NCBI GenBank assembly: GCA_017408985.1
Contig: JAFQTO010000024.1
Coordinates: 24,399-48,398 of the forward strand
DNA length: 24,000 bases
Source of the DNA: Clostridia bacterium
Lineage (GTDB): Bacteria > Bacillota > Clostridia > Oscillospirales > Butyricicoccaceae
Direction: 5' to 3'
Shown here one piece after another: positions 4,328 through 24,000 of the stretch. The position numbers were made by a program, and so were the translations under genes. The notes beneath the pieces were generated by a model. The model was not told the origin of the DNA and did not search any database. It saw only the letters and a list, made by a program, of their open reading frames with translations. Numbering within the stretch: the stretch's first letter is position 1; every line of letters begins with the position of its first letter.

Positions 4328-4397
4328 AGTATGATTTTCCCCTTTTCGAGTTGCTGTGTGTAACAAAAATAGCTACTAAATAAAATATAAACGAAAA

Positions 4398-4437
4398 AGC
4401 TCCGACTTTCAAGCATTTCTGATTGAACATCGGAGCT
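4398..4437 (-). terminator. Intrinsic terminator downstream of the Fe-S gene pair
   Basis: Outer stem agctccga (4398-4405) / tcggagct (4430-4437) with inner pairing ttcaa/ttgaa. On the minus strand it is followed by uuuucguuua. Confidence 0.55.
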
Positions 4438-4575
4438 CTTTTGGTAGAAATAGGGGGATATTTTCGCACCTCTCAGCGTACTGCGCTTCGCAGCAGATGC
4501 AGCAGGGATTTATGGCATTTTAGCGCGTTTGACGGCTTCTGAGGGGCGTGATCACGACGTTTTTGCCGATCGGTC

Positions 4576-5697
4576 TTATTCGCCCTGAGGCTTTTTGTAC
4601 TCGTTCTTTCTGATGCCGGGGAAGTGCTCGTCCAGATACTCCTCGCGGTAGGGGTTGACGCCGTCGGGTTCTTTTGCGGGGTGGAGAGGCAGCGCCCAGC
4701 GCTCGCGCTTAAAGTAAGGATTCTCAAAATGCGCCTCGCACCTGCCGCTCTTTTCCATCACGTCCATGCAGGAGCGGATACAGCCGCGTGCGCCGCAGAT
4801 GGCAAAATATCCGGTGTGGTCGATGATGTAGTTATAGTAGTCCATAACGGCGTGAGAGCCGGGTTTGCGGCCCCACTTTGCGCCTGCCAGCGAGTAGGAG
4901 AAAATGTATGCCTCCTCCTCGGTCATCTGGCTGGAGCGGACGTCGAATGCCATATTGGGGAACTCTTTTTTCAGGAAGGGCGAGCACTCGTTGTTCATGC
5001 CGTGGTGGGACAGGGTGCATCTGCCCATCTGCACGTCGCCGAAGTATACCTGCTTCTCGCCGAAATCTATGTACAGACGTGCGTTTTCGTCCTTGGGATC
5101 GGGGATAGCGCCGCCGGGACAGCCGCGGGCGCAGGCGCCGCAGTGCAGGCACAGAGTACCGGTATCAAGGATGGGATCGGTCTCAAGCTCGGCATCGGTG
5201 AATATCAGTCCCAGACGGACGCGGGGGCCGTATTTTTTGGTCAAAAAAACCTTTGACCAGCCGATCTCGCCCAGACCGCAGCCTGCGGCGATCATTCGGA
5301 TGCTGCAGACCACGTCGGGGGGCAGCTTGCCCTCTGCCACAGGTTTTTTGGTAGTGCCGTTGCCCTCGGGCACGGCGGGGTAGTGTGCCACGGCCTCGTA
5401 GCCGTGATCCTCAATGAAGCAGGCAAGCTGATAGGTCTTGATGGGACGGAAGAATGCGTTGAGCTTGTTGTAGGAGTAGAATGTATAGTTGTGCCAGTGT
5501 GTGCCTTCTTCTATACCGCGGTTGGCGCCGCGTGGAAAGGGCATTGCAATGGCGATGACCGACTTGGCCTTGGGGAAGTAGGAGATAGGGCTCATCAGCG
5601 CGGGGGCATTCTTGAATCGCTCAATGTTGCCTATGGCGATGCAGTCGATACCCAGCTCACGTGCCCTGTCCTTTATCATTTGGGCAGTCAGAGCCAT
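4576..5697 (-). CDS. QueG/RdhA-superfamily-like iron-sulfur protein (paralog 2 of a tandem pair)
   Basis: The N-terminus resembles epoxyqueuosine reductase / reductive dehalogenase cores (RELGIDCIAIGNIERF; PKAKSVIAIAMPFP; GLGEIGWSKVFLTKKYGPRVRLGLIFTDAELETD). Ferredoxin motif CLHCGACARGCPGG plus a distal CGARGCIRSC. Start ATG at 5697 lies 1 nt after the upstream gene stop. Confidence 0.6.
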   Translation of the reverse strand: MALTAQMIKDRARELGIDCIAIGNIERFKNAPALMSPISYFPKAKSVIAIAMPFPRGANRGIEEGTHWHNYTFYSYNKLNAFFRPIKTYQLACFIEDHGYEAVAHYPAVPEGNGTTKKPVAEGKLPPDVVCSIRMIAAGCGLGEIGWSKVFLTKKYGPRVRLGLIFTDAELETDPILDTGTLCLHCGACARGCPGGAIPDPKDENARLYIDFGEKQVYFGDVQMGRCTLSHHGMNNECSPFLKKEFPNMAFDVRSSQMTEEEAYIFSYSLAGAKWGRKPGSHAVMDYYNYIIDHTGYFAICGARGCIRSCMDVMEKSGRCEAHFENPYFKRERWALPLHPAKEPDGVNPYREEYLDEHFPGIRKNEYKKPQGE

Positions 5698-5698
5698 A

Positions 5699-6616
5699 TC
5701 AGTGACCTCTCTTTCCGGTCTTGGAGAAGCAGCCGCCAAGCACGTTGGCCTGCTCGTCCGAGCGGTCGACCTTCTGATCTCTGCCGCCGATGCTCCATAC
5801 TTCGCTTGTGCGGAAGGGATTATTAAACCGATTGGTCAGCGCCTTTCGCTCTTCCAGCGAGCACATGCAGGTGCGGTTGCACAGTGCGGCGACTCTGTCG
5901 GGCTTGCCGCTCTCAATGAATCTGTTGACAACGGCGCCGTTCTGGCAGATGCGGCACTTGTTGTAATCGATCTTGGCGATCTCAAAGCTCCTGCCGCAGA
6001 TGGTCACGGTCTCTGTCTCGGTGTCGCTGATGGCGCCCATGGGGCATGCGTCCATGCAGGCGGTGCAGCCGGTGCAGACGTCCATGTCAAGCAGGGGAGT
6101 GGGCTCAAGCTCGGCATCGGTCAGCAGCATGTGGAAGCGCTGACGGGAACCAAACTCGCGGGAGAAGGGGATGCCGTTGCGGGAAATAACACACAGACCG
6201 CAGGCAACGGCGGCGTAGTCAAAATCGGGATATACGTTGGGAGCGGGTCTGCCCTCGGCAACAGAAACACCCTGAGGCGCCTGATCGCTGGGGTTGGGGA
6301 ATACGGGCACGGCCTCATAGCCGAAGCCCTCAATAAAGTTGGACAGATTGTAGGCGGACAGAGAGATGAACTCGTCCTCCAGCCAGTTCTTGCCGAACAG
6401 CTGATAGTCGCCGAAGTTGGTGCCTTCTTCGACACCGCGCAGAGAGCCGCGGCAGATGCGCTTGCCGATGAGGATGACCGTCTTTGCCTCGGGGAAGATG
6501 GAAAAAGGATTGATGCGTGCATCCACTCCCTCAAAACGGGAACGGTCGGCAAAGCCGATCAGATCAACGCCGTCGGCTTTGGCAAAGTTTATGATCTTTT
6601 GTTTCAGTTCGTTCAT
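5699..6616 (-). CDS. QueG/RdhA-superfamily-like iron-sulfur protein (paralog 1 of a tandem pair)
   Basis: Same architecture as its neighbour (FAKADGVDLIGFADRSRF; PEAKTVILIGKRI; CTGCTACMDACPMGAI; CRICQNG; CNRTCMC). The start is placed at ATG 6616 (MNELKQKI...), preceded by AGAGGGG. Confidence 0.6.
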   Translation of the reverse strand: MNELKQKIINFAKADGVDLIGFADRSRFEGVDARINPFSIFPEAKTVILIGKRICRGSLRGVEEGTNFGDYQLFGKNWLEDEFISLSAYNLSNFIEGFGYEAVPVFPNPSDQAPQGVSVAEGRPAPNVYPDFDYAAVACGLCVISRNGIPFSREFGSRQRFHMLLTDAELEPTPLLDMDVCTGCTACMDACPMGAISDTETETVTICGRSFEIAKIDYNKCRICQNGAVVNRFIESGKPDRVAALCNRTCMCSLEERKALTNRFNNPFRTSEVWSIGGRDQKVDRSDEQANVLGGCFSKTGKRGH

Positions 6617-6793
6617 TGTGTATACCCCTCTGTTTTCAGGATTATGTTTGTTTGTGTCGGTGTATTGCGCCACACCAATTATATTATAGAACTCTCACCC
6701 CGCCCGCACACACTCACAAAACAACGCAAAAGGTGGACTTTTCGGTGTTGAAAAGCCTGAAAAAGTGTGGTATATTTGACAAGAGGTGGAAAA

Positions 6794-7889: not shown

Positions 7890-9386
7890 TTATTTTGCGT
7901 ATATTATTTCCTCATCCATAATCTTTAAAGCTTCTTGTTCAAGAAGATACGCTTCATAGCGTTTTTCGTTTGCCAGTTTTGCTAAATTGTTGATTTGCGC
8001 TTGAACTTGCTTATTCTTAAGCAACGGTATTTGAACCTGCTGAATATGCCAAGGTTCTATTGCATCAACAACTCCGCCGTAAGTAAAACGTTGAATTAGA
8101 GCTTTTCCATATTCAGAATTAAGAAAAATGTAAACATACCCGCAAATGGTATCATTGGATAATATTTGCATCATATTGTCGCTAATAGCCCAATTGAGAA
8201 AGTGCTTTGGGGGCATTATTACTTCGCCCAATGAACCACGAGCGGGTGTGAGAATAGAGTTTTCTTTAATACCAAGAGATCCTTCAAGCTGTTTTGAATG
8301 AGCTTTTCTAGACAAATATTTTTCACTTGAAGGGTCTAATTGTTTCATCTCTTTTCCACCTAAAAATTTAACGCCATAATCACTTTCTACATATACCCTT
8401 TTAAATCTACCAGGTAAAACAACATCGGAACTAATGCGACTGTCTCCAATGGTTGTAATTTCTGCTGCATGCTCTTTTAAATGTTCAATGATCGCATCAA
8501 CAATCGGCAAATGATAGGAAGCGTCAGCACGATAATTTAAATCGCTGAGTTTAACATTGAATGCATTTACAGAACTGGAATTTTCGATGTTTTTTTGCTC
8601 AAACTCGTTAATAGCAGGTAGTTTTAGTTCGGATATGAGCAATGCTGTCGCTTGGTCTATAAGATCATTCGATTCATCTCGCATTTTGTAAGAGTCGACA
8701 ATTAGGTTATGAATTCCAATTTTTATCTCTTTTGGTGCATTCGGAATAGGAACAGTAGCGAGGTGCTCCGATTCTATATGTGTTATAACGGCACCATAGC
8801 TGTTGGTAAGCAAGATTTTATTGCCTATTCTGCTTTTTAAGTATGTGTAAATGTATCCTTGATCAACCGAATTTCTGCACTCAATTCTTAAAAGATCATG
8901 ACTAAAAACCTTGTTATCTAAAGTGTCAGTTACATATGAAACTTTTCCTATGGTACCCGAACAAGTCATTAGGATTTGACCTTTCGAAACACGCAAGGCA
9001 TCTATATTTGTTTGAGTCAAGTGAGATATATAGCCATCTGGTATCGGTTTAATATCAACTATTGTAGAGGGTTGATATATAGGCAAGTCGGAATGTTCAA
9101 CCCATACTCGTTTAAATCTTGCACAAGTATAGGATGATGTTAACCCGTTCTCGCCACCAATCATAGTCAATGGGAATTTTGAGTTATTGATTATCTGCCG
9201 AGCCTGTTTTGCCTCTACATCAAAAACGCTTGCTTCAAGACGTTTGCCACGAGATATAACATCAGACAAAGACACGGAACACCATTTTATTGGAGATTCG
9301 TTAGCTTTGATATTAGAGGCATCTTGATCGTTATGCATATTCCTTAAGTTGTTGTTTACCACGACAAACCCTCCTGCTTTTTCCAT
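7890..9386 (-). CDS. HsdS-like DNA specificity subunit (two target-recognition domains)
   Basis: The protein repeats twice the layout of a variable TRD followed by a conserved helical spacer (…DQATALLISELKLP… and …INNLAKLANEKRYEAYLLEQEALKIM…). The start is uncertain: ATG 9386 has no RBS, whereas GTG 9362 follows AGGAGGG by 6 nt and overlaps the upstream stop. Confidence 0.85.
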   Translation of the reverse strand: MEKAGGFVVVNNNLRNMHNDQDASNIKANESPIKWCSVSLSDVISRGKRLEASVFDVEAKQARQIINNSKFPLTMIGGENGLTSSYTCARFKRVWVEHSDLPIYQPSTIVDIKPIPDGYISHLTQTNIDALRVSKGQILMTCSGTIGKVSYVTDTLDNKVFSHDLLRIECRNSVDQGYIYTYLKSRIGNKILLTNSYGAVITHIESEHLATVPIPNAPKEIKIGIHNLIVDSYKMRDESNDLIDQATALLISELKLPAINEFEQKNIENSSSVNAFNVKLSDLNYRADASYHLPIVDAIIEHLKEHAAEITTIGDSRISSDVVLPGRFKRVYVESDYGVKFLGGKEMKQLDPSSEKYLSRKAHSKQLEGSLGIKENSILTPARGSLGEVIMPPKHFLNWAISDNMMQILSNDTICGYVYIFLNSEYGKALIQRFTYGGVVDAIEPWHIQQVQIPLLKNKQVQAQINNLAKLANEKRYEAYLLEQEALKIMDEEIIYAK

Positions 9387-11377
9387 TCTGTAAAGATTGC
9401 AGGAATATCAGGCGTTTGATCATCTTCCACCTTCTTTTTCTGTTGGTGAGATATAGACTTATCTCCCTCTCCTGTTTCTCCAATTACAAGAACACTGTTG
9501 GTATCAGGTACAAGAATCTCATTGCCTTCTTTGTCACGTTTAAAGGTTGGGGTTCCACGTCTATCATGTCCAACCTTTTCAACCATAGCCATAAAGATAT
9601 TATAATCTGCCATTGTGCCCGCTTTTTCCTCAGTATCTTTCTGTTGCTGAGTTTTCTTTTGTAAGAAAAGAACCGAAGTTTGTGTGCCATTTCGAGGTTG
9701 GAAAGTATCGACGTGCAAATCAACACTACCGATAATTCGATGATTTTTTATCAACCATTCACGAATATATCCTAAACCGGGCGAACCAAGAATTGAATCA
9801 GGAAGAACTATACCCAATCTGCCGCCTTCAACAAGTAATTGTGTGCAACGCTCGATAAATAAGATTTCGGGAGGCACAGAGGATTGCAAACGTTCAGTCA
9901 TTGTCCAAACGCCTGTCTTTTTATTGTTTTCCCAAATGTGAGCAAGTTCAAATTGTTCTAAAATATTTTTATCTTTCACAGGGATTTTACTACCAAAAGG
10001 TGGGTTTGTAACAATAACATCAAAATATGCAATGGTATTATGATTTCTCAACTCACTTTTTTCAATACCGAGTGCCTCTGCTAATTTAGTGCGAAACTCA
10101 TCCGTCCATTCGTGAGGAGGTAAAAGCGAATTGGTTTGAAGAATATTACCACTACCATCATTGTTCATAACCATATTCATTTTGGTCGCTTTAACAAGGT
10201 CGGGATTGATATCGAATCCAAAATAATAGTGTGAAGCCATATCCGAAATACGATCGTTAAATGCGCGCATAGAGTCACTATCCCAATTCTTTCGATCACA
10301 GCCAATTTGTGCTGAAAATTCTCTTTCGAGATCTGCAATTACGTGTGTCATGGCAGTAACTAAGAAGCCACCTGTACCGCAAGAGCTATCCAATACTCTT
10401 TCGTCCATCTTGGGATTTATCATCTCAACAACCATCTTCATAACGTTACGAGGCGTAAAGAATTCACCTCTATCGCCACGGAGGTTGGCGCCAACAATTT
10501 CTTCGTATGCCTTCCCTTTAATGTCGATGTTAGTGTTAAGAAGGCTGTATTTCTGAAGTTCACTTACTATGTATGCCAAGCTTCTAGGTGCAAGTTTGAT
10601 TTCGTCATTGGAATCAAAAATTTTTCCGTGTTTTTTCTTTACTCTTTCAAAAATCTTCGATATACGCTTTTTAACGGTAAGCTGACCATCGGGATTTGAA
10701 CGTTCTTCTGATGTAGTGTAAAAATCAAGAGGATTAGGGATATTACGTTCATCTTCAATTTTGCAGAAAATAACCTTTAACAGTTCAAAAAACGCAGGCT
10801 GTTTTTGCAAACCATCATTTACGTGAATATGATTATGACAGGTCTTAAAAACGAACAATAAATTATCATCGTAAGCATTTTTTAATGATGTTCTTTTGGG
10901 GCGGTTAATATCATCCAAACTACCGTCAGCAGAGGGAATATCATTGTAATCCATAAAATCAATTTGTCCCTTATCATTGACAAATTTACGGAATACTTCT
11001 TTCTGCTTGCCGTTTGTCCACATACCCCACTCACAGTTAGGACAAGCAGACATATAAGATTTTAGTTGTTCAACACCATCTTTAGCATTACGTGCTTCAA
11101 CTGCCTCTTTCTTACACTCGATAATCAATTTGACGTTTTCTTGGGTTTGTTCGATGCAGTCTTTGTCAAAGATAACAATATCTGCACGCGGCTTACGTGA
11201 GCCGAGTTGCAGCGTATATTCGATCTTAATCTGTTTAGGCAGATACTTATGCTCGTTTACAAGTCTTTTTTCAATAGTTTGTCTTACATACTCTTCGGGT
11301 GTATCGTTACGGAATTTTCCATCGACATAGTCGCAGATTTTACCATCCGGTATAACAATCACTTTAGTTTCAGCCAT
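9356..11377 (-). CDS. Fused restriction endonuclease / N6-adenine DNA methyltransferase (BcgI-A-like RM subunit)
   Basis: The N-terminus has a PD-(D/E)xK-like motif as in HSDR_N domains (RADIVIF…VKLIIECKKE). SAM-binding motif I is LDSSCGTGGFL and catalytic motif IV is TNPPFGS. No helicase/translocase domain or separate hsdR is nearby. RBS AAGGAG precedes ATG 11377. Confidence 0.85.
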   Translation of the reverse strand: MAETKVIVIPDGKICDYVDGKFRNDTPEEYVRQTIEKRLVNEHKYLPKQIKIEYTLQLGSRKPRADIVIFDKDCIEQTQENVKLIIECKKEAVEARNAKDGVEQLKSYMSACPNCEWGMWTNGKQKEVFRKFVNDKGQIDFMDYNDIPSADGSLDDINRPKRTSLKNAYDDNLLFVFKTCHNHIHVNDGLQKQPAFFELLKVIFCKIEDERNIPNPLDFYTTSEERSNPDGQLTVKKRISKIFERVKKKHGKIFDSNDEIKLAPRSLAYIVSELQKYSLLNTNIDIKGKAYEEIVGANLRGDRGEFFTPRNVMKMVVEMINPKMDERVLDSSCGTGGFLVTAMTHVIADLEREFSAQIGCDRKNWDSDSMRAFNDRISDMASHYYFGFDINPDLVKATKMNMVMNNDGSGNILQTNSLLPPHEWTDEFRTKLAEALGIEKSELRNHNTIAYFDVIVTNPPFGSKIPVKDKNILEQFELAHIWENNKKTGVWTMTERLQSSVPPEILFIERCTQLLVEGGRLGIVLPDSILGSPGLGYIREWLIKNHRIIGSVDLHVDTFQPRNGTQTSVLFLQKKTQQQKDTEEKAGTMADYNIFMAMVEKVGHDRRGTPTFKRDKEGNEILVPDTNSVLVIGETGEGDKSISHQQKKKVEDDQTPDIPAIFTEWKKQEGLSW

Positions 11378-11561
11378 TTATATCTACTCCTTTTTTATGC
11401 TTTTTTAAATAATCATCAGCCGCCTTATTAAATAAATCGGCCATGCTGTGCATGTTATCATCATAAGCGATAGCAGATTTTAGGGCTTTTAATTTTTCAG
11501 GATTCATTCTAAATTGAATTTGTTGTTTTCGATCTGATTTATCCACTTTTTTAGAAGACAT
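11370..11561 (-). CDS. Small ribbon-helix-helix-like protein; candidate controller of the RM module
   Basis: 63 aa counted from the ATG at 11561, preceded by TAGGAGGTG. The segment KQQIQFRMNPEKLKALKSAIA fits a beta-strand plus helix RHH N-terminus. Its stop overlaps the RM gene start by 8 nt (ATAAATGGCTGA). Confidence 0.55.
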   Translation of the reverse strand: MSSKKVDKSDRKQQIQFRMNPEKLKALKSAIAYDDNMHSMADLFNKAADDYLKKHKKGVDING

Positions 11562-11577
11562 CAAAAAAGCACCTCCT

Positions 11578-11631
11578 AATGATATCATTCAATCTTGATA
11601 TAATGATATCATTTGTGACAGGAGTTGTCAA
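11578..11631 (-). promoter_or_regulatory. Promoter of the RM module with two identical 12-bp palindromic operator candidates
   Basis: On the minus strand: TTGACA (11626-11631), a 17-nt spacer, then TATCAT (11603-11608). The palindrome AATGATATCATT lies at 11602-11613, overlapping the -10, and again at 11578-11589, abutting the RBS. Centres are 24 bp apart. Confidence 0.7.
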
Positions 11632-11726
11632 GAATTTTTGTCGCACAACATAACAAGCAGGGAAAATGTACATCACATTTTCCACATTTTTAGGACATCC
11701 TAAAGCCTTATGATAAAAAGAAAAAA

Positions 11727-11750
11727 GCAGAAACGATTTTTCGTTTCTGC
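11727..11750. terminator. Bidirectional intrinsic terminator
   Basis: Perfect 10-bp stem gcagaaacga-tttt-tcgtttctgc flanked by A6 and T5. It lies downstream of the MATE gene on the minus strand. Confidence 0.85.
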
Positions 11751-11813
11751 TTTTTAATTACTGCCCTTTAGAGTACAACGCCTATGGTCTGCTCCCTTAT
11801 TTTTTTCACAGGA

Positions 11814-15215: not shown

Positions 15216-16289
15216 TTACTTACCCACTTTGACACGCCAACCCTTGGTATCGGGCAGACGGCCGGTCTGAATGCCGGTGATGGTATCGTAGAGCTTCAGA
15301 CTCAAAGGACCGGTCTCGCCGTTGCCAATGGTCATGACCTCATTCTGATAGCGCAACTTGCCCACCGGCGAGATAACGGCGGCAGTGCCGGTACCGAACA
15401 CCTCTTCCAAAGTGCCATCCTTCTGGGCCTGCAACAGCTCCTCAGCGGAGATCTTCCGCTCCTGGACCTCATAGCCCCAATCCTTGCACAGCTCGATGGT
15501 GGAGTTGCGGGTGATGCCGGGCAGGATAGAGCCGCTGAGCGCAGGTGTGACCACCTTGCCGGCGATCTTGAAGAAGATGTTCATAGCGCCCACCTCTTCA
15601 ATGTACTTGCGCTCCACGCCGTCCAGCCACAGGACCTGAGAATAGCCTGCGTCGTGGGCCTTCTGCTGGGCGATCAGGCTGGCGGCGTAGTTGCCGCCGG
15701 TCTTGGCAAAGCCGATGCCGCCACGGACTGCCCGGACATACTCATCCTCGATCCAGATGCCTACAGGCGCCAATCCGCTTTCGTAGTAAGCGCCGCTGGG
15801 GGAGAGGATCACCATAAACAGGTAGGTCTTTGAGGGCGCAACACCCAGGAACTCATCGGTGGCGATGATGAAGGGACGGATGTACAAAGATGTGCCGGGC
15901 TCGGTGGGAATCCAATCCCGATCTACATCCACCACTGCGCTGACAGCCTGCACAAAGTCCTCAACAGGCAGTTGGGGAATCACCAGACGGTCGTTGGTGT
16001 TGTTGGTCCGCTTTGCGTTCATATCGGGGCGGAACAGGAAGATATCGCCGTTGTCGCCCTTATAGGCCTTCAAGCCCTCGAACATCTCCTGGCCGTAGTG
16101 GTAGACCATGGCGGCAGGAGAAAGGCTGATGTTCTGGAAGGGCACGATCCGGGGATCATGCCAACCCTGGCCCTCTGTATAGTTCATTACGAACATGTGA
16201 TCTGTGAAGATCTTACCGAAGCCCAGCTTCTGGCCGGGGGCCGGCTTTTGCTTGGGGCTTGTGGTTTTGGTAATTTTAATATTCAGCAT
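15216..16289 (-). CDS. ilvE: Branched-chain amino acid aminotransferase
   Basis: 357 aa with class-IV aminotransferase/BCAT signatures (FGKIFTDHMF, MFEGLKAYK, AKTGGNYAASL). RBS AAGGGAGG. Confidence 0.92.
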   Translation of the reverse strand: MLNIKITKTTSPKQKPAPGQKLGFGKIFTDHMFVMNYTEGQGWHDPRIVPFQNISLSPAAMVYHYGQEMFEGLKAYKGDNGDIFLFRPDMNAKRTNNTNDRLVIPQLPVEDFVQAVSAVVDVDRDWIPTEPGTSLYIRPFIIATDEFLGVAPSKTYLFMVILSPSGAYYESGLAPVGIWIEDEYVRAVRGGIGFAKTGGNYAASLIAQQKAHDAGYSQVLWLDGVERKYIEEVGAMNIFFKIAGKVVTPALSGSILPGITRNSTIELCKDWGYEVQERKISAEELLQAQKDGTLEEVFGTGTAAVISPVGKLRYQNEVMTIGNGETGPLSLKLYDTITGIQTGRLPDTKGWRVKVGK

Positions 16290-16301
16290 AATATGCCTCC
16301 C

Positions 16302-16835
16302 TTAGAAATCGTAGCCGGTCTGCAGAGCCTGGCAGTTGATGTCGATGAGATTTGCCTTCTTGGCAGGGATAAAGGACTCCAGAGTCTGCCGGTTGCCTGC
16401 AAAAGGAACAGCACTACATTCCTTCATCAGCTTGCCTACCAACACCATGTTGGCCAATGTGGCAAATCCGGCATCCTTTGCCAGCTGGGTGGCCGGCAGG
16501 TAGAACGCCTCTACATCGGTACGCTCCACCTTCGCATCGATCAGCGTGGAATCCACGATGATCTTGCCACCGGGAACCACGGTATCCACATACTTCTGCA
16601 GAGAAGGCAGGTTCATGGCGATGAGCACATCCGGGGCAGTGACGATGGGACTGCCTACAGGGTCCTCCGACAGGATCACACTGCAGTTGGCTGTGCCGCC
16701 ACGCATCTCCGGTCCGTAGGAGGGCAACCAGGAGACCTGCAGATTCTCTGTCAGACCTTTGTATGCCAAAAACTTACCGGCAAACAGGACGCCCTGTCCA
16801 CCGAAGCCGGCGATGAGGATCTGTGTTGTTTTCAT
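16302..16835 (-). CDS. 2-oxoacid:ferredoxin oxidoreductase, gamma subunit
   Basis: N-terminal ILIAGFGGQGVLFAGK motif, ~177 aa. ATG 16835 overlaps the beta-subunit stop (TGATG); GTG 16838 is an alternative start. Confidence 0.88.
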   Translation of the reverse strand: MKTTQILIAGFGGQGVLFAGKFLAYKGLTENLQVSWLPSYGPEMRGGTANCSVILSEDPVGSPIVTAPDVLIAMNLPSLQKYVDTVVPGGKIIVDSTLIDAKVERTDVEAFYLPATQLAKDAGFATLANMVLVGKLMKECSAVPFAGNRQTLESFIPAKKANLIDINCQALQTGYDF

Positions 16836-17590
16836 CACTTTCCCTCCTTTGCCGCAGTGCGGTCCTTATAGACACCGATGGGATAGTAAGGAAGCATATC
16901 GCTTTCCACCCACTCCAGTGCCTTCTGGGGTGTCATGCCCCAGTTTGTGGGACAGGCGGAGACGACCTCTACCAGGGAGAAGCCCTTGCCGTCGATCTGG
17001 TTCTGGAAGGCCTTTTTGATGGCCTTCTTGGCCGCATTTACATTTTTCACATTGTTCACTGCTACCCGGGCGATGAACTCAGGACCCTCCAGAGTGGAGA
17101 GCATCTCACTGACCTTGATGGGCCAGCCGCAGTGGTTCACATCTCTGCCGTAGGGAGAGGTCTGGGTGACCTGCCCAGGCAGGGAGGTGGGCGCCATCTG
17201 ACCGCCGGTCATGCCGTAAATGGCATTGTTGACGAAGATCACAGTGATATTTTCGTTTCTTGCGGCGCTGTGGACCGTTTCTGCCATGCCGATGGAGGCC
17301 AGGTCGCCGTCACCCTGGTAGGTGAAGACCACGTTCTCCGGGCGGCAACGCTTAATGCCGGTGGCCACTGCCGGCGCTCTGCCGTGGGCGGCCTCGATCA
17401 TATCGCAGGCAAAATAGTCATATGCCATAACAGCGCAACCGACAGGCGCAACACCGATGGCTTTGCCCTTGATGCCCAGCTCGTCGATGACCTCAGCCAC
17501 CAGACGGTGGATAATACCGTGGGGACAGCCGGGGCAATAATGGAAAGGCGCATCTGTCAGTGCCTTGGGTTTTTTGAATACAACAGCCAT
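16835..17590 (-). CDS. 2-oxoacid:ferredoxin oxidoreductase, beta (TPP-binding) subunit
   Basis: [13 protein letters not shown] cluster/TPP region and [12 protein letters not shown] motif; 251 aa. Confidence 0.9.
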
Positions 17591-17592
17591 GA

Positions 17593-18651
17593 TTACTCTC
17601 CTTTCTGCGCCTTGCGGATGGCCGCCAGCACCTCATCGGGGCTGGGGATCATGCCGCCGCAGCGATTGCACAGGCTGACAGGCTTTTTACAGCCGGTAGC
17701 AAGCCGGATATCCTCGATCATTTGACCCATGTTCAGCTCAACGCTGATGAAGCTCTTTACCTTTTCCGCCGCGGCGGCAAGGGGCTTTGTGGGGAAGGGC
17801 CACAGGGTAATGGGACGGATCAGACCCACCTTGATACCCTCTGCCCGGGCGGCTACCACCGCGTTCTTTGCCACACGGGAGGCAATACCGAAGGCCACCA
17901 CACAGTACTCGGCGTCCTCCATCATGTACTCTTCCCACATGGCTTCCTTCTCTTCCACTGTTTTATACCGCTCATAGCGCTCGAAGTTCTTGACCTCCAG
18001 CTCATCGGGCTTTAAGTACAGAGAGTTGACGATGTTGTGCTTTCTCTCGCCGTTGGTGCCGGTGAGGGCCCAGGGCTTTTCGTAGGTCTCGATCTGCGCA
18101 TCCTCGAAGGAGATCGGCTCCATCATCTGACCGATGGTGCCGTCTGCCAGGATCATAGCGGTCATCAAATACTTATCGGCCAGATTGAAGCCCTTAATGG
18201 TCAGACTGGCCATTTCCTGCACAGAGGCCGGGGCCAGAACGATCATCCGGTAGTCACCGTGACCGCCACCCTTGGTGGCCTGGAAATAATCAGACTGAGA
18301 AGGCTGGATGCCACCCAGGCCGGGGCCGCCACGCTGGACGTTTACCACCAGGGCAGGCACATCGGAGCCGGCAATATAGCTCAAGCCCTCTGCCTTCAGG
18401 GAAATTCCGGGGCTGCTGGAGGAGGTCATGACCCGCATGCCTGCGGCGGCGGCGCCATAGACCATATTGATGGAAGCGACCTCACTTTCCGCCTGGAGGA
18501 ACACGCCGCCGATCTTGGGCATCTTCTTGGCCATATATGCGGCGATCTCCGTCTGGGGCGTGATGGGGTAGCCAAAATAGTGACGACAGCCGGCACGGAT
18601 GGCGGCTTCGGCAATGGCTTCATTGCCCTTCATTAATACTCTTTCTGCCAT
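17593..18651 (-). CDS. 2-oxoacid:ferredoxin oxidoreductase, alpha subunit (VorB-like size class)
   Basis: N-terminus [30 protein letters not shown] is typical of POR/KOR/VOR alpha subunits; 352 aa. Substrate class cannot be read from the sequence alone. Confidence 0.9.
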
Positions 18652-18663
18652 GTTTGCGCCTCC

Positions 18664-18870
18664 TTACTTTTCTACTGTGATGATACAGTCGGGGCACATG
18701 GTGGCGCAGAATGCGCAACCGATGCACTTATCCGGCTCTGCCATCACCGCAGGTGAATAGCCTTTTTTGTTGATCTTATCCGAGGCAATGGTCAGACAGC
18801 CCTTGGGGCAGGCATTGACGCACAGGCCACAGCCCTTGCAAAGATCGGTTTCGAATGTAAGTTTTGCCAT
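18664..18870 (-). CDS. 2-oxoacid:ferredoxin oxidoreductase, delta subunit (2x[4Fe-4S] ferredoxin)
   Basis: 68 aa with CKGCGLCVNACP and CIGCAFCATMCP. Confidence 0.9.
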   Translation of the reverse strand: MAKLTFETDLCKGCGLCVNACPKGCLTIASDKINKKGYSPAVMAEPDKCIGCAFCATMCPDCIITVEK

Positions 18871-18897: not shown

Positions 18898-19602
18898 TTA
18901 TCCCCACAGAGGCCGAGCCTTCGGCTTCTGAGACGGTAAATCAAAGTATTTTTCCTGCAGTTGCAGGGGGAAAACATTGTTAAGGGTATCCGCCAGGGTC
19001 GCCGCCACCGCTTTTTCAGCAGTGTGCAACCAAACCGGCAGTCCGGAAAGCGCGCTGAGCGCTTCTATGTAGGAAAGGGATTCCAGCACCGTTTCGGCGG
19101 TGGTCTCCGACGCCAGGTTGGTATTGTTGACGATGCAGGTGAAGCAAAGCCCACAGGCCTGCTCGATCTCACCCATCACCTCCAGGGCCTCCGCCGGTGT
19201 CCGGGTCAGAGGGCGGCTGGCATTGGCAACGAATACCATGCGGTAGTTATTCTCTTCCTTGATAAAAGGGACATATCTGCCCAGGGCATAGGCGCCCCGG
19301 TCATCTCCGCCGATATCCATGACGGCGAAGCTGTTTTTATCCTGGACCAGCCGGTAGGCCTCCGCCGGAAGGGCCGGCAGGTCTACGTTGGAATTGGTAA
19401 ATTGAGATGTGATCAGATCAATACCGGCCTCCTTCAGCGCCTTGGCGCTGTCAGCGGTACGGAAATAGGGATTGACGATGTCCAGGTCAGCGATACAGAC
19501 CTTTTTCCCCTCCGACGCCAAATGCAGGGCGTAATTGACTGCGATATTGGTCTTGCCGCTACCGTAATGGCCGGCAAACAGGGTCAGACGTTTATGTTCC
19601 AT
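18898..19602 (-). CDS. P-loop NTPase of unknown role (SIMIBI-like)
   Basis: Walker A motif FAGHYGSGKTN followed by VCIADLDIVNPYF and a hydrophobic-strand-Asp motif AVMDIGGDD. Start ATG 19602 lies 1 nt after the upstream stop. Confidence 0.6.
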   Translation of the reverse strand: MEHKRLTLFAGHYGSGKTNIAVNYALHLASEGKKVCIADLDIVNPYFRTADSAKALKEAGIDLITSQFTNSNVDLPALPAEAYRLVQDKNSFAVMDIGGDDRGAYALGRYVPFIKEENNYRMVFVANASRPLTRTPAEALEVMGEIEQACGLCFTCIVNNTNLASETTAETVLESLSYIEALSALSGLPVWLHTAEKAVAATLADTLNNVFPLQLQEKYFDLPSQKPKARPLWG

Positions 19603-19603
19603 A

Positions 19604-20554
19604 TTACTCCTTGCCGGGGATCGCCCAGGGGTTATCCAGCGTATATTTCACCGTGTCGATGATAGCTTGCTTCATTTCCGCCGTCACTGCCATATCGCCC
19701 AGGTTTTGGGTGGAGGAATGGCGCAGATGGGACGGTACGGAATCCAGGTTGATCTGGGTCACAGCATTGCCGGTGAACTGGGCGTACCAGGCATAGCCGA
19801 TCATCAAACAGCCGTAGTCATTCAAATGGGTGTGATCCCGATACAACTGAACCTCGGGGATATTCAGCTCTTTAAGGGCATACATCAGCGGCGTGCCGGA
19901 GGTCACGTGACCTGCAAACATGGGGTCATCCAGGACCGTATCGATGGCAGTTTGGTTGGTCTGGGTCAGCTGTGCCAGCTGATCCACCTGGGATGCCTCC
20001 ACAGGGTTGTCGTACAGCACGGGATCGGTGGAATTGAACCATGTGGAATGCCACCAGTAGGTATGGGGCGTCTGTACACAGCCATCCACATATTCCGTAA
20101 TATATTTCCGGGCATTCTCATTCATGTTGTTTTCTGTGTCGCCGTTGCCGGCCTGCAGGACCACCACATCCCAGGCCTGGTCCATAAGACCCACATCCAT
20201 GATCACGCCCTTGGTGATCTTCCATCTGCCGTCGGTGTTGCAGTAGTAGTCATAGGCGGCTTCGTTGTTTTTCATAAAATCCACATGCATGGACATGCTG
20301 CAGCCGCTATGGTACATGATGCCAAGGACCACCTTCTTATCGGGCATTTGATCCGTGAAGGCAGTATGGAGCATTTGAAAGGCATTGACAGAACGGCTGG
20401 AGCCCAGGATCATGATCTTCAGTACCTCTGCCTCCTCCGGACTTTCCGTTGCCTGGGTGGTGGCAGTGGTCTGCGACGGCGCTTCATTGCCACAGCCGAC
20501 AAAAATGCCGACCAGCAGGCACAGACACAGGATGTAGAGCATATATCTTTTCAT
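19604..20554 (-). CDS. Lipoprotein, DUF4886/SGNH-hydrolase-like
   Basis: Signal peptide with lipobox (LLVGIFVGC|GNE), a low-complexity linker, then IMILGSSRS…WDVVVLQAG…YRDHTHLNDYGCLMIGYAWY. This resembles SGNH-fold DUF4886 proteins; the family assignment is from memory only. Confidence 0.55.
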   Translation of the reverse strand: MKRYMLYILCLCLLVGIFVGCGNEAPSQTTATTQATESPEEAEVLKIMILGSSRSVNAFQMLHTAFTDQMPDKKVVLGIMYHSGCSMSMHVDFMKNNEAAYDYYCNTDGRWKITKGVIMDVGLMDQAWDVVVLQAGNGDTENNMNENARKYITEYVDGCVQTPHTYWWHSTWFNSTDPVLYDNPVEASQVDQLAQLTQTNQTAIDTVLDDPMFAGHVTSGTPLMYALKELNIPEVQLYRDHTHLNDYGCLMIGYAWYAQFTGNAVTQINLDSVPSHLRHSSTQNLGDMAVTAEMKQAIIDTVKYTLDNPWAIPGKE

Positions 20555-20565
20555 ATGTATTCTCC

Positions 20566-22857
20566 TTACAGCTTTTTGCGAATAATCTTGCCGCTGGTTG
20601 TCTTGGGCAGACTCTCTCTGAATTCCACGATCCGGGGATACTTATAGGGCGCAGTCCGGGACTTGACATAGTCCTGGATCTGTTTTTTCAGCTCGTCGGT
20701 GCCCTTAAAGTCCTTTACCAGCACGATGGAAGCCTTGACCACCTGGCCACGGATCTCATCGGGGGCGGCGGAGACACCGCACTCCAGCACGTAGGGAAGC
20801 TCCATGATCACGTTTTCGATCTCGAACGGTCCGATCCGGTAACCGGAGGACTTGATCACGTCGTCGGCACGGCCCACATACCAGTAGAAGCCGTCCTCAT
20901 CCTTCCAGGCCAGGTCGCCGGTATGGTAGAAGCCGTCACACCAGGTCTCGGCAGTCACATCGGGACTTCCCTCGTAAGCAAAGCTGAGGCCGCAGGGCAG
21001 GCCCTTGGAGATGTCGATACAGATCTCGCCGGTCTCGCCACGGTCCACGATCTTGCCTTCGGAATTCAACAGCTGAACGTTATACAGCGGTACCGGCTTG
21101 CCCATAGAGCCAAGCTTGTGACTGCTGCCAAGGAGATTGCCGATGATCAAGGTGCTCTCGGACTGACCGAAGCCCTCCATGATATCCAAACCGGTGGCGT
21201 TCTGGAACTGGCGGTAGACCTCCGGGTTCAGCGCCTCGCCGGCAGTGGAGGCATGCTCGATGGTGCTCAGATCAAAACGGCTCAGGTCCTGCTTGGCCAG
21301 CATCCGGTACATGGTGGGCGGCGCGCAGAAGGTGGTGATGCCGTACTGCTTGAACATGGGCAGGATCTTCTCCGCGTCGAAGCGGTCGAAATCGTAGACA
21401 AACAGGCCTGCCTCACAGAGCCACTGGCCGTAGAGCTTGCCCCACATGGACTTTGCCCAGCCGGTATCGGAGATGGTCAGGTGCAGACCGTCGGGGCGGA
21501 CACAGTGCCAGTATTTTGCTGTGATAAAATGACCCAGGGGATACTTATAATTGTGAGCCGCCAGCTTGGGATAGCCGGAAGTGCCGGAGGTGAAGAACAT
21601 CAGCATGGGGTCAGAGCCACAGGGCGCATCGGCTGTTCTTGCAAAGTGACTGCTGTACATGGAATATTCTTCGTCAAAATCATGCCAGCCTTCCCGACTG
21701 CCTCCCACCAGGATCTTGTGGGCAAGTCCGGGATACTGGGCGGCGGCCTCATCCACCGCAGTGGCGGTGTCACCGTCAGCGGTACACAGGATCGCCCGGA
21801 CATCTGCCGCCTGGAACCGGTAGGCAAAGTCCTTGACAAGGAGCTGGTTGGTAGCAGGGATCGCCACAGCGCCCAGCTTGTGCAGGCCCAAAATCGCAAA
21901 CCAGAACTGGTAATGGCGCTTGAGCACCAGCATCACCCGGTCGCCACGCTTGATGCCCATGGCCTTAAAGTAGTTTGCCGCCCGGGCAGACTCCTTTTTC
22001 ATATCCTGGAAGGTGAAGGTGCGTTCCGTGCCGTCCAGACTCACATGAAGCATGGCGCGGCGGTCCGGCTTCTTTCTGCCCAGGGCATCGATGATGTCGA
22101 AGGCGAAATTGAACTTATCTTCGTTTTTGAAGTCAATGGCAGTGATCCTGCCCTGCGCATCTTCTGTGGGAATGATAAAGTTGTGGTAAATGCGTTGCTC
22201 CGGATCCACACCGGGCAGTTTTGCAGAGGGTGTTGCCACTGCCGCCGCCTGCTCACCCTCACGGGCGGCAGAGTTTCTCAGTACGATGGCATAGAAAGCG
22301 CAATCCTCCCCTTCCGCGGCAACCATGCCGTGGGGCGTGGCAGAATCATAATAGATACAGTCGCCGGGGTGCAGGATCTCCGTATGACCGCCGATCTGGA
22401 TCTTCATATGACCCCGGATCACGATGTCGCACTCCTGGCCCTCATGGGTGGTCAGCTCCATATCCTCAAACTCGGCGCCCTCCCGGTAGGCAAGTTCCAT
22501 GTAAAGAGGCAGAGCGATACGATTGCGGAAATCAGCCGCCAGGTTATATCCCACCATATGGTGCGCTTCCTCAATGCGCTGTCCCTCACCCTTACGGGTC
22601 AGGGCATAGGAGCGCAGTTTGGGGCTGTGGCCTTCCAGAAGGTCGCTGAAGTCAACGCCGAAGATCAGCGCGCAATGGTACAAAAAGGCAATGCTCATAT
22701 TGCGGGAACCGTTTTCGTACTGGGTATACTCCTGCACAGAAACACTGGTGCGCTGAGCCATCTCCTCCACGGTGAAGCCGCTGATCTGCCGCAGCTCCCG
22801 GATACGCCCTGCAACCTCCCGTATCTTGTAGTCCATGCCTGTCATTGTCTGTTCCAT
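20566..22857 (-). CDS. Fusion protein: XRE-type HTH + cupin (PuuR-like regulator module) + AMP-forming acyl-CoA synthetase
   Basis: One uninterrupted 763-aa ORF. aa ~10-70 form an HTH (IRELRQISGFTVEEMAQRTSVSVQEYTQYENGSRN). aa ~120-195 form a cupin (HEGQECDIVIRGHMKIQIGGHTEILHPGDCIYYDSATPHG). aa ~215-763 form an adenylate-forming ligase (FFTSGTSGYPK, YHTGDLAW, GRADDVIKSSGYRIGPFEIE, PKTTSGKIIRKKL). RBS AAGAGG precedes ATG 22857. Confidence 0.85.
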   Translation of the reverse strand: MEQTMTGMDYKIREVAGRIRELRQISGFTVEEMAQRTSVSVQEYTQYENGSRNMSIAFLYHCALIFGVDFSDLLEGHSPKLRSYALTRKGEGQRIEEAHHMVGYNLAADFRNRIALPLYMELAYREGAEFEDMELTTHEGQECDIVIRGHMKIQIGGHTEILHPGDCIYYDSATPHGMVAAEGEDCAFYAIVLRNSAAREGEQAAAVATPSAKLPGVDPEQRIYHNFIIPTEDAQGRITAIDFKNEDKFNFAFDIIDALGRKKPDRRAMLHVSLDGTERTFTFQDMKKESARAANYFKAMGIKRGDRVMLVLKRHYQFWFAILGLHKLGAVAIPATNQLLVKDFAYRFQAADVRAILCTADGDTATAVDEAAAQYPGLAHKILVGGSREGWHDFDEEYSMYSSHFARTADAPCGSDPMLMFFTSGTSGYPKLAAHNYKYPLGHFITAKYWHCVRPDGLHLTISDTGWAKSMWGKLYGQWLCEAGLFVYDFDRFDAEKILPMFKQYGITTFCAPPTMYRMLAKQDLSRFDLSTIEHASTAGEALNPEVYRQFQNATGLDIMEGFGQSESTLIIGNLLGSSHKLGSMGKPVPLYNVQLLNSEGKIVDRGETGEICIDISKGLPCGLSFAYEGSPDVTAETWCDGFYHTGDLAWKDEDGFYWYVGRADDVIKSSGYRIGPFEIENVIMELPYVLECGVSAAPDEIRGQVVKASIVLVKDFKGTDELKKQIQDYVKSRTAPYKYPRIVEFRESLPKTTSGKIIRKKL

Positions 22858-22859
22858 AA

Positions 22860-23158
22860 TTACCTCTTAAATCAAAACAAAAAGCTCGTCTCAAAGGATA
22901 GTTTCCTTGAGACGAGCTGTTAAAAAGCAACCCGCGGTACCACTCAAATTGCAGTTGCCTTACGGCTCACTGCCACTCATCGAGCGCAGACACGCTCTAA
23001 GCATTGACGCAGCTGACACGTGGAGGTTCTACCGGCAAATTGCTTTCTTCCTCCCGGCTCCGGAGGGACACTCACACTGCTTCTGCCATGGCTTGCACCA
23101 ACCGCCAATTCTCTGAGGCAGGGTCTGCAGGGGAGATTCTCCATCACAGCCTTTATGA
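22860..23158 (-). promoter_or_regulatory. T-box riboswitch leader (tRNA-sensing antitermination)
   Basis: Read on the minus strand. Stem I spans 23151-23056, with K-turn GGC-UGU-GA-UGGAG … CUCCG-GA-GCC, AG bulge AGAGA and distal loop GGUUGGUGCAA. The T-box sequence AAUUUGAGUGGUACCGCGG lies at 22950-22932. The antiterminator (UUUGAG/CUCAAG and GCGGG/CUCGU around the bulge UGGUACC) is mutually exclusive with the terminator 5-prime arm. Confidence 0.85.
22871..22918 (-). terminator. Leader (attenuator) terminator of the T-box
   Basis: On the minus strand: AGCUCGUCUCAAGGA-loop-UCCUUUGAGACGAGCU followed by UUUUUGUUUUGAUUU. It ends ~10 nt before the RBS of the fusion gene. Confidence 0.85.
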
Positions 23159-23164
23159 TAGGAA

Positions 23165-23193
23165 ATCATATCATTTTTATATGAAGTTGTCAA
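23165..23193 (-). promoter_or_regulatory. Sigma-A promoter of the T-box operon
   Basis: On the minus strand: TTGACA (23188-23193), a 17-nt spacer, then TATGAT (23165-23170). The palindrome TATGAT-N5-ATCATA (23154-23170) overlaps the -10 and the predicted transcription start. Confidence 0.75.
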
Positions 23194-23247: not shown

Positions 23248-24000
23248 TTACAGCTTATTGCGCATGATCTTGCCACTGATGGTCTTGGGCAGTTCCGTGC
23301 GGAACTCCACGATCCGGGGGTACTTATAAGGCGCAGTGTGCTGTTTGACGTAATTCTGGATCTCCTTTTTCAGCTCGTCGGTGCCCTCTGTGCCGGGAAC
23401 CAGCACGATACAGGCCTTGACCACCTGGCCACGGACTTCGTCCGGAGCGGCGCAGACACCGCACTCCAGCACGTAGGGCAGTTCCATAATGGTGGATTCG
23501 ATCTCGAAGGGTCCGATCCGGTAGCCCGAGGACTTGATCACATCGTCGGCACGGCCTACATACCAGTAGTAGCCATCCTCATCCCGCCATGCCACATCGC
23601 CGGTATGATACATACCGTCATGCCATGCCGCATCGGTGGCTTCCTTGTTCAGATAGTAGCCCAGGAACACACCGCAGGTAGGATTGGGATCGGTACGGAT
23701 AACGATCTCGCCGTTAATACCGTCTTCCACCGGGTTGCCCTCGGCATCCACGATATCGATGCCGTAGCCGGGGACAGGCTTACCCATGGCGCCGGGCTTG
23801 ATCTCGGTGCCAAAGAGATTCGCAATGCCAAGGGTCATCTCAGTCTGACCGAAGCCCTCATGAATCCGCAGGCCGGTCGCCTTTTCAAACTGATAGAACA
23901 CCTCAGGGTTCAGCGCCTCACCTGCCGTAGTAGCATGGTGGATCGTAGAAAGATCATACTTGCTCAAATCTTGCTTGATCAGCATCCGGTACATGGTAGG
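23248..24000 (-). CDS. AMP-forming acyl-CoA synthetase, C-terminal part (5-prime end lies beyond the window)
   Basis: The C-terminal ~250 aa are highly similar to the ligase part of the fusion protein (YHTGDVAW, GRADDVIKSSGYRIGPFEIE, IMELPYVLECGV, TAPYKYPRIVEF, LPKTISGKIMRNKL). The ORF is still open at the window edge. Confidence 0.85.
   Translation of the reverse strand, partial: PTMYRMLIKQDLSKYDLSTIHHATTAGEALNPEVFYQFEKATGLRIHEGFGQTEMTLGIANLFGTEIKPGAMGKPVPGYGIDIVDAEGNPVEDGINGEIVIRTDPNPTCGVFLGYYLNKEATDAAWHDGMYHTGDVAWRDEDGYYWYVGRADDVIKSSGYRIGPFEIESTIMELPYVLECGVCAAPDEVRGQVVKACIVLVPGTEGTDELKKEIQNYVKQHTAPYKYPRIVEFRTELPKTISGKIMRNKL

Follow-up and report, generated by a model that had tools for sequence, protein, structure and literature searches.

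A putative XRE-cupin regulator fused to an acyl-CoA ligase at the head of a valine T-box operon in gut and rumen Clostridia

Why should a module of the kind found in transcription factors be joined, within a single polypeptide, to a metabolic enzyme, and what does it do there: does it bind DNA, or does it act upon the enzyme to which it is tethered? These questions are raised by a 24,000-nucleotide stretch of DNA from a Clostridia bacterium (GenBank assembly GCA_017408985.1, contig JAFQTO010000024.1, positions 24,399 to 48,398), hereafter called the window, in which one open reading frame (ORF) encodes an XRE-type helix-turn-helix (HTH) domain, a cupin barrel and an acyl-CoA ligase in a protein of 763 amino acids. 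The ORF occupies 20566-22857 on the minus strand, the strand of all the window features described below unless another is given, and stands behind a T-box leader with a valine specifier. The fusion is genuine and evolutionarily stable, and is not an assembly artefact; it is widespread and uncharacterised, its sequences being already public under generic names. With respect to function, the comparisons described here favour, with moderate confidence, a local XRE-cupin regulator fused to the acyl-CoA ligase that heads the operon, in which the N-terminal module would act as a ligand-sensing repressor.

The first-pass annotation of the window, made from the letters of the sequence, had described a PuuR-like HTH-cupin architecture in frame with a full-length ligase and joined to it by an Ala/Glu-rich linker, a description with which both the ORF and a Pfam scan agree. 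Translation starts at the ATG at 22857, and a ribosome-binding site, AAGAGG (22863-22868), can be read off the sequence 5 nt 5' of it. Pfam places HTH_19, HTH_3 and HTH_31 at residues 15-76, Cupin_2 at 135-191, AMP-binding at 261-614 and AMP-binding_C at 679-757, and all four domains score above their curated cut-offs. Within the N-terminal part the scores are 37.7 bits for HTH_19 (cut-off 30.2), 33.3 for HTH_3 (23), 31.4 for HTH_31 (27) and 44.6 for Cupin_2 (27.2). The XRE-type HTH domain (residues 18-76; HTH_19 E 1.9e-9, HTH_3 E 5e-8, with helices over residues 7-75 in the predicted model) is thus encoded at 22630-22806, and the cupin barrel with its lead-in strands (residues ~77-195, from the Cupin_2 match, E 1.2e-11, and the model) at 22273-22629. 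The variable Ala/Glu-rich linker (residues ~196-220) follows at 22198-22272, and the ligase, which by Pfam, NCBIfam and its motifs resembles MbcS and the medium-chain acyl-CoA synthetases (MACS), takes up the remainder (residues 221-763 and the stop codon, 20566-22197). The five core motifs of the ANL superfamily, including the catalytic Lys, are all present in the window protein and in 72/72 orthologues; in the window protein they are A3 TSGTSGYPK at 423, A5 EGFGQSE at 561, A7 YHTGD at 644, A8 GRADDVIKSSGYRI at 662 and A10 PKTTSGKI at 751.

Could such an ORF nonetheless be an artefact of a frameshift or misjoin, or could an internal start alone be used, giving a plain ligase? The first-pass annotation had raised the possibility of an error at the junction as well as the question of how far the architecture has spread, and both now have an answer. 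A protein search brought up sequences of 760-764 aa with all four of these Pfam domains in more than 120 separate clusters (90% identity). They are drawn from NCBI, ENA, JGI and Logan assemblies and carry generic database names ('AMP-binding protein' or 'cupin domain-containing protein'), and the architecture occurs in over 240 protein clusters overall. A genome scan found the N-terminal module and the junction encoded in at least 128 species-representative genomes; the 80 loci retrieved from that scan all come from metagenome-assembled genomes (MAGs) of Oscillospiraceae and Acutalibacteraceae that live in the gut or rumen, among them Faecousia and Ca. Avilachnospira. The ORF is uninterrupted in 72/72 orthologues, each from a separate MAG assembly, and the frame is likewise kept in 58/58 complete members of a paralogous family. 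The orthologue alignment has no conserved internal Met between residues 185 and 264, the ribosome-binding site lies ahead of the first ATG, and the N-terminal codons are under strong purifying selection.

The extent of this selection can be followed along the protein. Among orthologues the HTH has a mean pairwise identity of 0.74, residues 79-125 one of 0.89 and the cupin one of 0.83; in the linker it falls to 0.51, and the two ligase domains stand at 0.83 and 0.91. The corresponding ratios of nonsynonymous to synonymous substitution (dN/dS), obtained by the Nei-Gojobori method, are 0.14, 0.05, 0.09, 0.30, and 0.09 and 0.06, values that are only rough because dS is saturated (~1.3-1.6). The two sets of values therefore indicate that the N-terminal module is held under purifying selection comparable to that on the ligase, and that the linker, which is the least conserved segment, behaves as a flexible tether. 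A frameshift, a misjoin and a product made from an internal start only were all rejected on the clusters, the uninterrupted orthologues, the dN/dS values and the want of a conserved internal Met, and an artefact of any of these kinds is regarded as highly improbable.

Where, then, does the fusion come from? An exhaustive HMMER search with residues 1-215 returned 3,484 relatives, the strongest of which are full-length fusions (P0126, 768 aa; P0140, 766 aa; P0149, 758 aa) or fragments of them, and those at ~42% identity and lower are ordinary standalone HTH-cupin proteins of 185-203 aa. Each of the five closest standalone relatives has a same-strand gene for an AMP-binding ligase (548-613 aa) directly downstream, the gaps between the two genes being 3, 12, 40, 118 and 11 nt. 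These five unfused cassettes sit in otherwise unrelated neighbourhoods, one of them in a Coriobacteriales MAG. The standalone regulators align to residues 8-193 of the window protein at 40-43% identity (n=5), and their partner ligases align at 42-55% identity from residues 221-247 to residues 761-763. The adjacency and the alignments of all five pairs therefore mark the fusion as a Rosetta-stone event, and, as the alignments place it, the lost stop codon and spacer of a regulator-ligase cassette became the linker of about 25 Ala/Glu-rich residues. In a neighbour-joining tree of the ligases the fused families group together, apart from the unfused pairs, and the corresponding regulator tree agrees with one exception. 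Since these trees carry no support values a single origin is suggested, not established, and the topology suggests one or few fusion events. In sequence, a widespread two-gene cassette, with regulator followed by ligase, became fused, and the fused gene was subsequently duplicated in gut Oscillospiraceae and Acutalibacteraceae.

The product of that duplication lies directly upstream. The reading frame at 23248-24000, which encodes the C-terminal 250 residues of a paralogue, is cut by the window, as the first-pass annotation had stated, and its missing part can be gauged from its orthologues, here called the P1 family, which are fusions of 745-761 aa behind an isoleucine T-box. The fragment shares a mean identity of 91% with this family, as against 70% with the window gene's own family, and in related loci the gene upstream of the window-protein orthologue is a P1 member. 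All 58 complete members fall in the stated size range, and their alignment with the window protein begins near residue 8; the one member that was scanned (locus L001) has HTH_19, Cupin_2, AMP-binding and AMP-binding_C. From these orthologues, the cut paralogue almost certainly carries the same N-terminal module. The fusion itself predates the duplication, because the two paralogue families align through that module. Differences fixed between them are concentrated in residues 79-125, where they number 36 per 100 aa; the figure is 12 for the remainder of the cupin, 9 for the HTH, and 7 and 1 for the N- and C-domains of the ligase. The segment of residues 79-125 is also the most constrained inside each family. 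Such a pattern is the signature of a sensor that was retuned after duplication, and it fits paralogue-specific sensing. A third fused family, around P0140, is 57% identical to the window protein and comprises more than 120 clusters, one of which has 1,874 member sequences. A separate observation concerns P0149, from a divergent fused family, in which the ligase P-loop is degenerate, reading FLQSYSYGMAKPV in place of FFTSGTSGYPK, and the HTH and cupin are kept; the protein may have become a pseudo-enzyme with a purely regulatory or sensory function.

The operon is also controlled at the RNA level. The gene had been claimed as the first after a T-box, and a full-length leader was indeed found at 22905-23156, matching RF00230 over model positions 1-219 of 219 (76.8 bits, E 7.6e-17). 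A scan of the window at Rfam gathering thresholds gave no match, and the T-box was seen in a permissive scan, because its score falls under the gathering score of 93 bits; orthologous leaders score 73-87 bits. The layout of Stem I, as in the glyQS and tyrS leaders, places the specifier codon next to a single base, then the base-closing helix and the kink-turn, and this layout, together with the Rfam alignment, puts the specifier at 23067-23069, where it reads GUC. The same codon is present in 41/47 orthologues and the synonymous GUA in 2-3, a codon-like pattern of substitution that therefore identifies a valine specifier. The specifier loop (23062-23080) departs from the canonical form in that its 5' side is without AGUA, its 3' side has GAG for GAA, and the codon is followed by a C where most orthologues have G or A; this probably explains the sub-threshold score. 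The conserved T-box/antiterminator sequence AAUUUGAGUGGUACCGCGGG lies at 22931-22950, and an intrinsic terminator (22873-22918), with a 14-bp hairpin placed at 22883-22918 and a U-run, has a 5' arm that overlaps the antiterminator 3' arm. Upstream is the promoter TTGACA-17-TGnTATGAT (23193-23165, 11/12 matches), of which the -35 box TTGACA (23188-23193) is near-invariant in 44 anchored orthologous promoters and the extended -10 element TGaTATGAT (23165-23173) has a high information content.

The leaders of the other genes have their own specifiers. That of the paralogue reads AUC (Ile) in 51/53 cases, a third and divergently oriented T-box, which precedes leuA, reads CUG (Leu) in 46/53, and the third fused family sits behind an AUC (Ile) T-box. 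In related loci the three T-boxes occur within 3.3 kb, as at L001:2675-2912(-), 3085-3315(+) and 5712-5958(+), and likewise in L002, L004, L006 and L012, with the Leu (CUG) leader preceding a divergent leuA, the Ile (AUC) leader preceding the first fused paralogue and the Val (GUC) leader preceding the second. In some loci (e.g. L008, L051 and L056) the gap between the paralogues is reduced to 15-100 nt, and the Val leader is apparently missing there. Beside a member of the third fused family, at L093:6753-7004(-), there is a Phe (UUC) T-box in front of genes (3766-6633(-)) for a PaaK-like AMP-binding ligase, an ACT-domain protein and a 3-deoxy-D-arabino-heptulosonate 7-phosphate (DAHP) synthase; by its gene content this set may follow the same logic for the formation of phenylalanine from phenylacetate.

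What does the ligase activate? Its best NCBIfam model, MbcS (NF047394), scores 415.9 bits against an equivalog cut-off of 850, which makes the ligase a relative and not an equivalog of MbcS; its substrate can therefore be proposed from context but not assigned. The nearest solved structures are 3ETC (616.7 bits) and then human ACSM2A. 3ETC is a Methanosarcina medium-chain acyl-CoA synthetase with a reported preference for 2-methylbutyrate. MbcS of S. aureus prefers isobutyrate and 2-methylbutyrate (PMC13584741). The first-pass annotation had implied a branched-chain substrate, which fits both the valine specifier and an operon that runs on into a 2-oxoacid:ferredoxin oxidoreductase of the VOR type (VOR) and the aminotransferase IlvE. 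From the Val and Ile specifiers and from this context we infer that the ligase acts on short branched-chain acids.

Fundamental to the role of the module is whether it is built, and has been kept, as a regulator. A model of the N-terminal part, made from a 49-sequence alignment of standalone relatives, has a five-helix HTH domain followed by a cupin barrel, with a predicted local distance difference test score (pLDDT) of 91.9 and a predicted template modelling score (pTM) of 0.81. In global structure it comes closest to 1Y9Q, which is an HTH_3-cupin regulator of Vibrio cholerae, with template modelling (TM) scores of 0.65/0.72; 1Y9Q is also the sole match of the module in the PDB by sequence, albeit a weak one. 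Otherwise the module matches the regulator families PuuR, BzdR and RstR, with the NCBIfam PuuR model giving 27.8 bits against a cut-off of 211. The cupin ligand positions H138, E142 and H176 are invariant across the subfamily, so the cupin binding site has been retained. The XRE-cupin factors studied in Pseudomonas are dimeric repressors that bind palindromes and control adjacent metabolic genes (PMC7901475), and by analogy the pairing of a regulator with a ligase gene fits this local-repressor pattern. The N-terminal module would accordingly be a dimeric repressor in which the cupin senses a small molecule, probably the acid substrate, the acyl-AMP or the acyl-CoA product, and it would add a layer of control responsive to substrate or product on top of the tRNA-sensing layer of the T-box. 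Because the module is tethered to an enzyme, the protein is potentially a trigger enzyme.

Several observations weigh against this reading or urge caution over it. The HTH is acidic, with a mean net charge of -2.0 in the window family and -3.4 in the paralogue family, and it has a conserved Glu42-Glu43 pair at the start of the recognition helix, where base-contacting residues usually sit. The lowest Foldseek E-values of the N-terminal model are to HppE, Psf4, HEPD and MPnS, which are enzymes with an HTH-like-plus-cupin fold that are not known to bind DNA. The full-length AlphaFold model, built on a 26-sequence alignment, is too poor for inter-domain contacts to be read from it (pLDDT 51.8, pTM 0.37), and the shortfall of the ligase against the MbcS cut-off is to be counted on the same side. 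No operator is conserved across 47 orthologous promoters, as judged by alignment and a shuffle test. Scans of these promoters for information content and symmetry found nothing conserved beyond the -35 box, the extended -10 and a TCC start region; an alignment of the intergenic region gave no cross-lineage motif in the paralogue promoter, and neither did an inverted-repeat search upstream of the unfused cassettes.

The candidate operator put forward in the first-pass annotation, a 6-N5-6 palindrome (TATGAT-ttcct-ATCATA), is present exactly at 23154-23170 and overlaps the -10 as described, and in that respect the proposal stands; as an operator it is a weak candidate. It is perfect in 3/47 orthologous promoters, and although 18/47 have it with at most one mismatch, against 4.2 expected from shuffles, the excess stems from a few related lineages and the palindrome is absent in most. 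The -10 hexamer makes up its first arm, and its second arm ends in 3 nt that belong to the conserved 5' end of the T-box, AUAAAGGC; these two elements largely explain the palindrome. Outside the window, TTGCAAATTTGCA(C), a 14-bp palindrome that is close to perfect, lies between the divergently oriented promoters of the Leu and Ile T-boxes in four loci (L008, L010, L030 and L048). It is degenerate in L001 and L020, and the loci that have it are among those with a longer intergenic region; it could be a regulator site.

Several of the points just listed favour a serious rival, in which the HTH-cupin unit does not bind DNA and is instead a ligand-sensing or oligomerisation domain acting allosterically on the ligase, as in feedback by valine, a 2-oxoacid or an acyl-CoA. 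It would then be a separate regulatory subunit in the unfused cassettes, and transcription would be controlled wholly by the T-box. An acidic HTH with Glu-Glu in its recognition helix, the lack of a conserved operator at any of the three promoter classes and the Foldseek ranking of HTH-like-plus-cupin enzymes are all in keeping with this, gaps as short as 3-12 nt in unfused cassettes would permit interacting subunits to be translationally coupled, and the segment of residues 79-125 is extremely constrained yet divergent between paralogues. Yet HTH_19, HTH_3 and HTH_31 all exceed their cut-offs, the best global structural match is of the regulator type, and the HTH is under purifying selection (dN/dS 0.12-0.14). 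The acidic motif, moreover, is shared by the standalone relatives, so the acidic helix is not the result of decay after fusion, and the experimentally studied XRE-cupin proteins in the available part of PMC7901475 are all DNA-binding repressors. Taken together these comparisons leave the allosteric domain as unlikely but deserving of serious attention, and a DNA-binding, ligand-sensing module is judged most likely.

A further alternative has the cupin as a second catalytic domain, a metal-dependent and oxygen-independent isomerase, decarboxylase or hydrolase that works on the substrate or product of the ligase, with an HTH that is structural, as in HppE. The invariant H138, E142 and H176 do form a triad of the 2-His-1-carboxylate type, and it is the HppE-family enzymes that give the lowest Foldseek E-values; however, superposition on HppE, Psf4, HEPD and MPnS is poor (TM 0.39-0.50, root-mean-square deviation 8-16 Å), the sequence of the module matches the regulator families, and the route from isobutyrate to valine proposed below has no step left that needs such an enzyme. 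Oxygenase chemistry would also be at odds with the presumably strictly anaerobic life of the gut Clostridia lineages concerned. A catalytic cupin is consequently considered improbable.

The fused gene stands at the head of a metabolic operon, the content of which points to its purpose. The ligase gene is followed after 11 nt by a gene for a DUF4886 putative lipoprotein with the lipobox FVGC (19604-20554), which in the window lies between the ligase and a P-loop gene and is absent from that position in L001-L012. The next gene (18898-19602) encodes a P-loop NTPase with a weak ParA/Mrp-like match and is conserved after the ligase in related loci. In 5/6 of those with ORFs listed, a P-loop NTPase of 223-234 aa (e.g. 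L001:8296-8982) separates the fused ligase from the VOR genes, and it might function in Fe-S or VOR maturation. Then come a 68-aa 2x[4Fe-4S] ferredoxin as VOR delta-type subunit (18664-18870), a VorB-type alpha subunit of the 2-oxoacid:ferredoxin oxidoreductase (17593-18651; NF005507, 548.8 bits, cut-off 399), the thiamine pyrophosphate-binding beta subunit (16835-17590) and the gamma subunit (16302-16838), and finally an IlvE branched-chain aminotransferase (15216-16289; NF009897, 496.7 bits, cut-off 307). The delta-type, alpha, beta and gamma subunits would together make a four-subunit 2-oxoisovalerate:ferredoxin oxidoreductase. In related loci a dehydrogenase of the Glu/Leu/Phe/Val type replaces IlvE (L001:11593-12624), and the two are alternative final amination steps.

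In terms of metabolism, the operon appears to make valine from isobutyrate, with the genes assigned to steps on the basis of gene content. When tRNA-Val is uncharged the window leader would read through, the ligase would activate isobutyrate to isobutyryl-CoA, the VOR, running reductively, would carboxylate isobutyryl-CoA to 2-oxoisovalerate, and IlvE would aminate this to valine. LeuA would take 2-oxoisovalerate towards leucine, and the upstream paralogue behind its Ile T-box would follow the same route from 2-methylbutyrate. Reductive carboxylation of a branched acid to valine in rumen microbes is known from classical work. The conversion of isovalerate to leucine by reductive carboxylation is likewise established physiology of rumen microbes (PMC7356843).

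Two other regions of the window are of separate interest. Positions 7890-11800 form a low-GC island (GC 0.36-0.39, compared with 0.48-0.58 in the flanks) that was probably acquired horizontally; its type I restriction-modification genes encode a 673-aa N6_Mtase/HSDR_N fusion and a 498-aa specificity subunit. At 403-2491(+) there is a BlaI/MecI-type repressor (124 aa) with a BlaR1-type M56 peptidase sensor (574 aa), a pair unrelated to the fusion.

How far can the idea of a fused regulator be taken? BirA, the biotin protein ligase that is also the repressor of the bio operon, is a trigger enzyme, as are PutA and NadR. By analogy with it, a doubtful but testable extension is that the fusions are a new BirA-like family, in which the cupin would relay the formation of the branched acyl-adenylate or acyl-CoA to the HTH and so make it bind or release DNA. 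The paralogues would then report on isobutyrate (Val) and 2-methylbutyrate (Ile), each would form with its T-box a two-input AND gate, and the unfused cassettes of Bacillota (Firmicutes) and Coriobacteriales would represent the two-protein ancestor. If true, the gate would open under a shortage of an amino acid combined with a supply of its fatty-acid precursor. A literature search that excluded most subscription journals found no paper on an HTH-cupin-ligase fusion or on the unfused cassette, and, within the same limits, none on T-box control of acyl-CoA ligase or VOR operons and nothing relevant on BirA or on acyl-CoA synthetases as trigger enzymes.

Should the module bind DNA, abundant Clostridia of the gut and rumen would possess a large, hitherto unstudied family of regulators joined to enzymes. 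With an unfused counterpart available in nature for comparison, this would be a clean system in which to ask why regulators become fused to their target enzymes and how catalysis can gate transcription. Whether or not it does so, the locus gives a genetic basis to a long-known physiology, in which anaerobes of the rumen and gut use branched-chain volatile fatty acids to build valine, isoleucine and leucine by reductive carboxylation, and this has a bearing on the feeding of isoacid supplements to ruminants and on gut cross-feeding. It brings acyl-CoA ligases and 2-oxoacid:ferredoxin oxidoreductases into the T-box regulon, with the specifiers as built-in labels that predict which acid each ligase paralogue activates.

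How does this arrangement compare with known systems? The closest likeness of the module is to the XRE-cupin transcription factors (PuuR, PauR, PsdR and ErfA, with 1Y9Q as a structure), in which an XRE HTH is followed by a cupin barrel over about 190 residues. The standalone relatives adjoin a ligase gene, and in the window protein that adjacency has become fusion. A typical XRE-cupin factor, however, is a free-standing two-domain protein of ~180-200 aa, whereas here the fusion runs to 763 aa, its recognition helix is acidic and the promoter comparisons gave no operator. Among the regulon members given in the available part of PMC7901475 there is no acyl-CoA ligase. With T-box operons for amino acids the window leader shares a Stem I with specifier, a T-box sequence and mutually exclusive antiterminator and terminator, and its specifier corresponds to the predicted amino-acid product of the operon. 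It differs in its sub-threshold score and non-canonical specifier loop, and in that the genes encode an acyl-CoA ligase and a VOR and not ilv functions or an aminoacyl-tRNA synthetase.

The ligase part finds its counterpart in MbcS and the MACS enzymes, given that MbcS is its best model and 3ETC its best solved relative, that the core motifs are intact, and that the acids preferred by MbcS are those predicted here from the Val and Ile T-boxes. MbcS, though, feeds branched-chain fatty-acid synthesis, responds to CodY and is without an N-terminal module or T-box (PMC13584741), whereas the product of the window ligase would feed reductive carboxylation to amino acids. A further comparison is with FadD1 of P. 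aeruginosa, an ANL acyl-CoA ligase reported to work as a transcription factor, binding promoters in a manner modulated by fatty-acid ligands (PMC12754631). FadD1 has neither an HTH nor a cupin, and its binding is ascribed to a leucine-zipper-like motif inside the ligase (PMC12754631). It is also a global and not a local regulator, and its regulatory part is not homologous to the window module.

With BirA, PutA and NadR the window protein shares the combination of an N-terminal domain of DNA-binding type and an enzyme in one polypeptide. The likeness to BirA goes further, since BirA, too, is a ligase that makes an acyl-adenylate, in its case the co-repressor. The parts themselves are different: BirA joins a winged HTH to a ligase of the class II aminoacyl-tRNA synthetase-like type, and the window protein joins an XRE HTH to an ANL-superfamily ligase, with the cupin as an additional sensor domain between the HTH and the enzyme.

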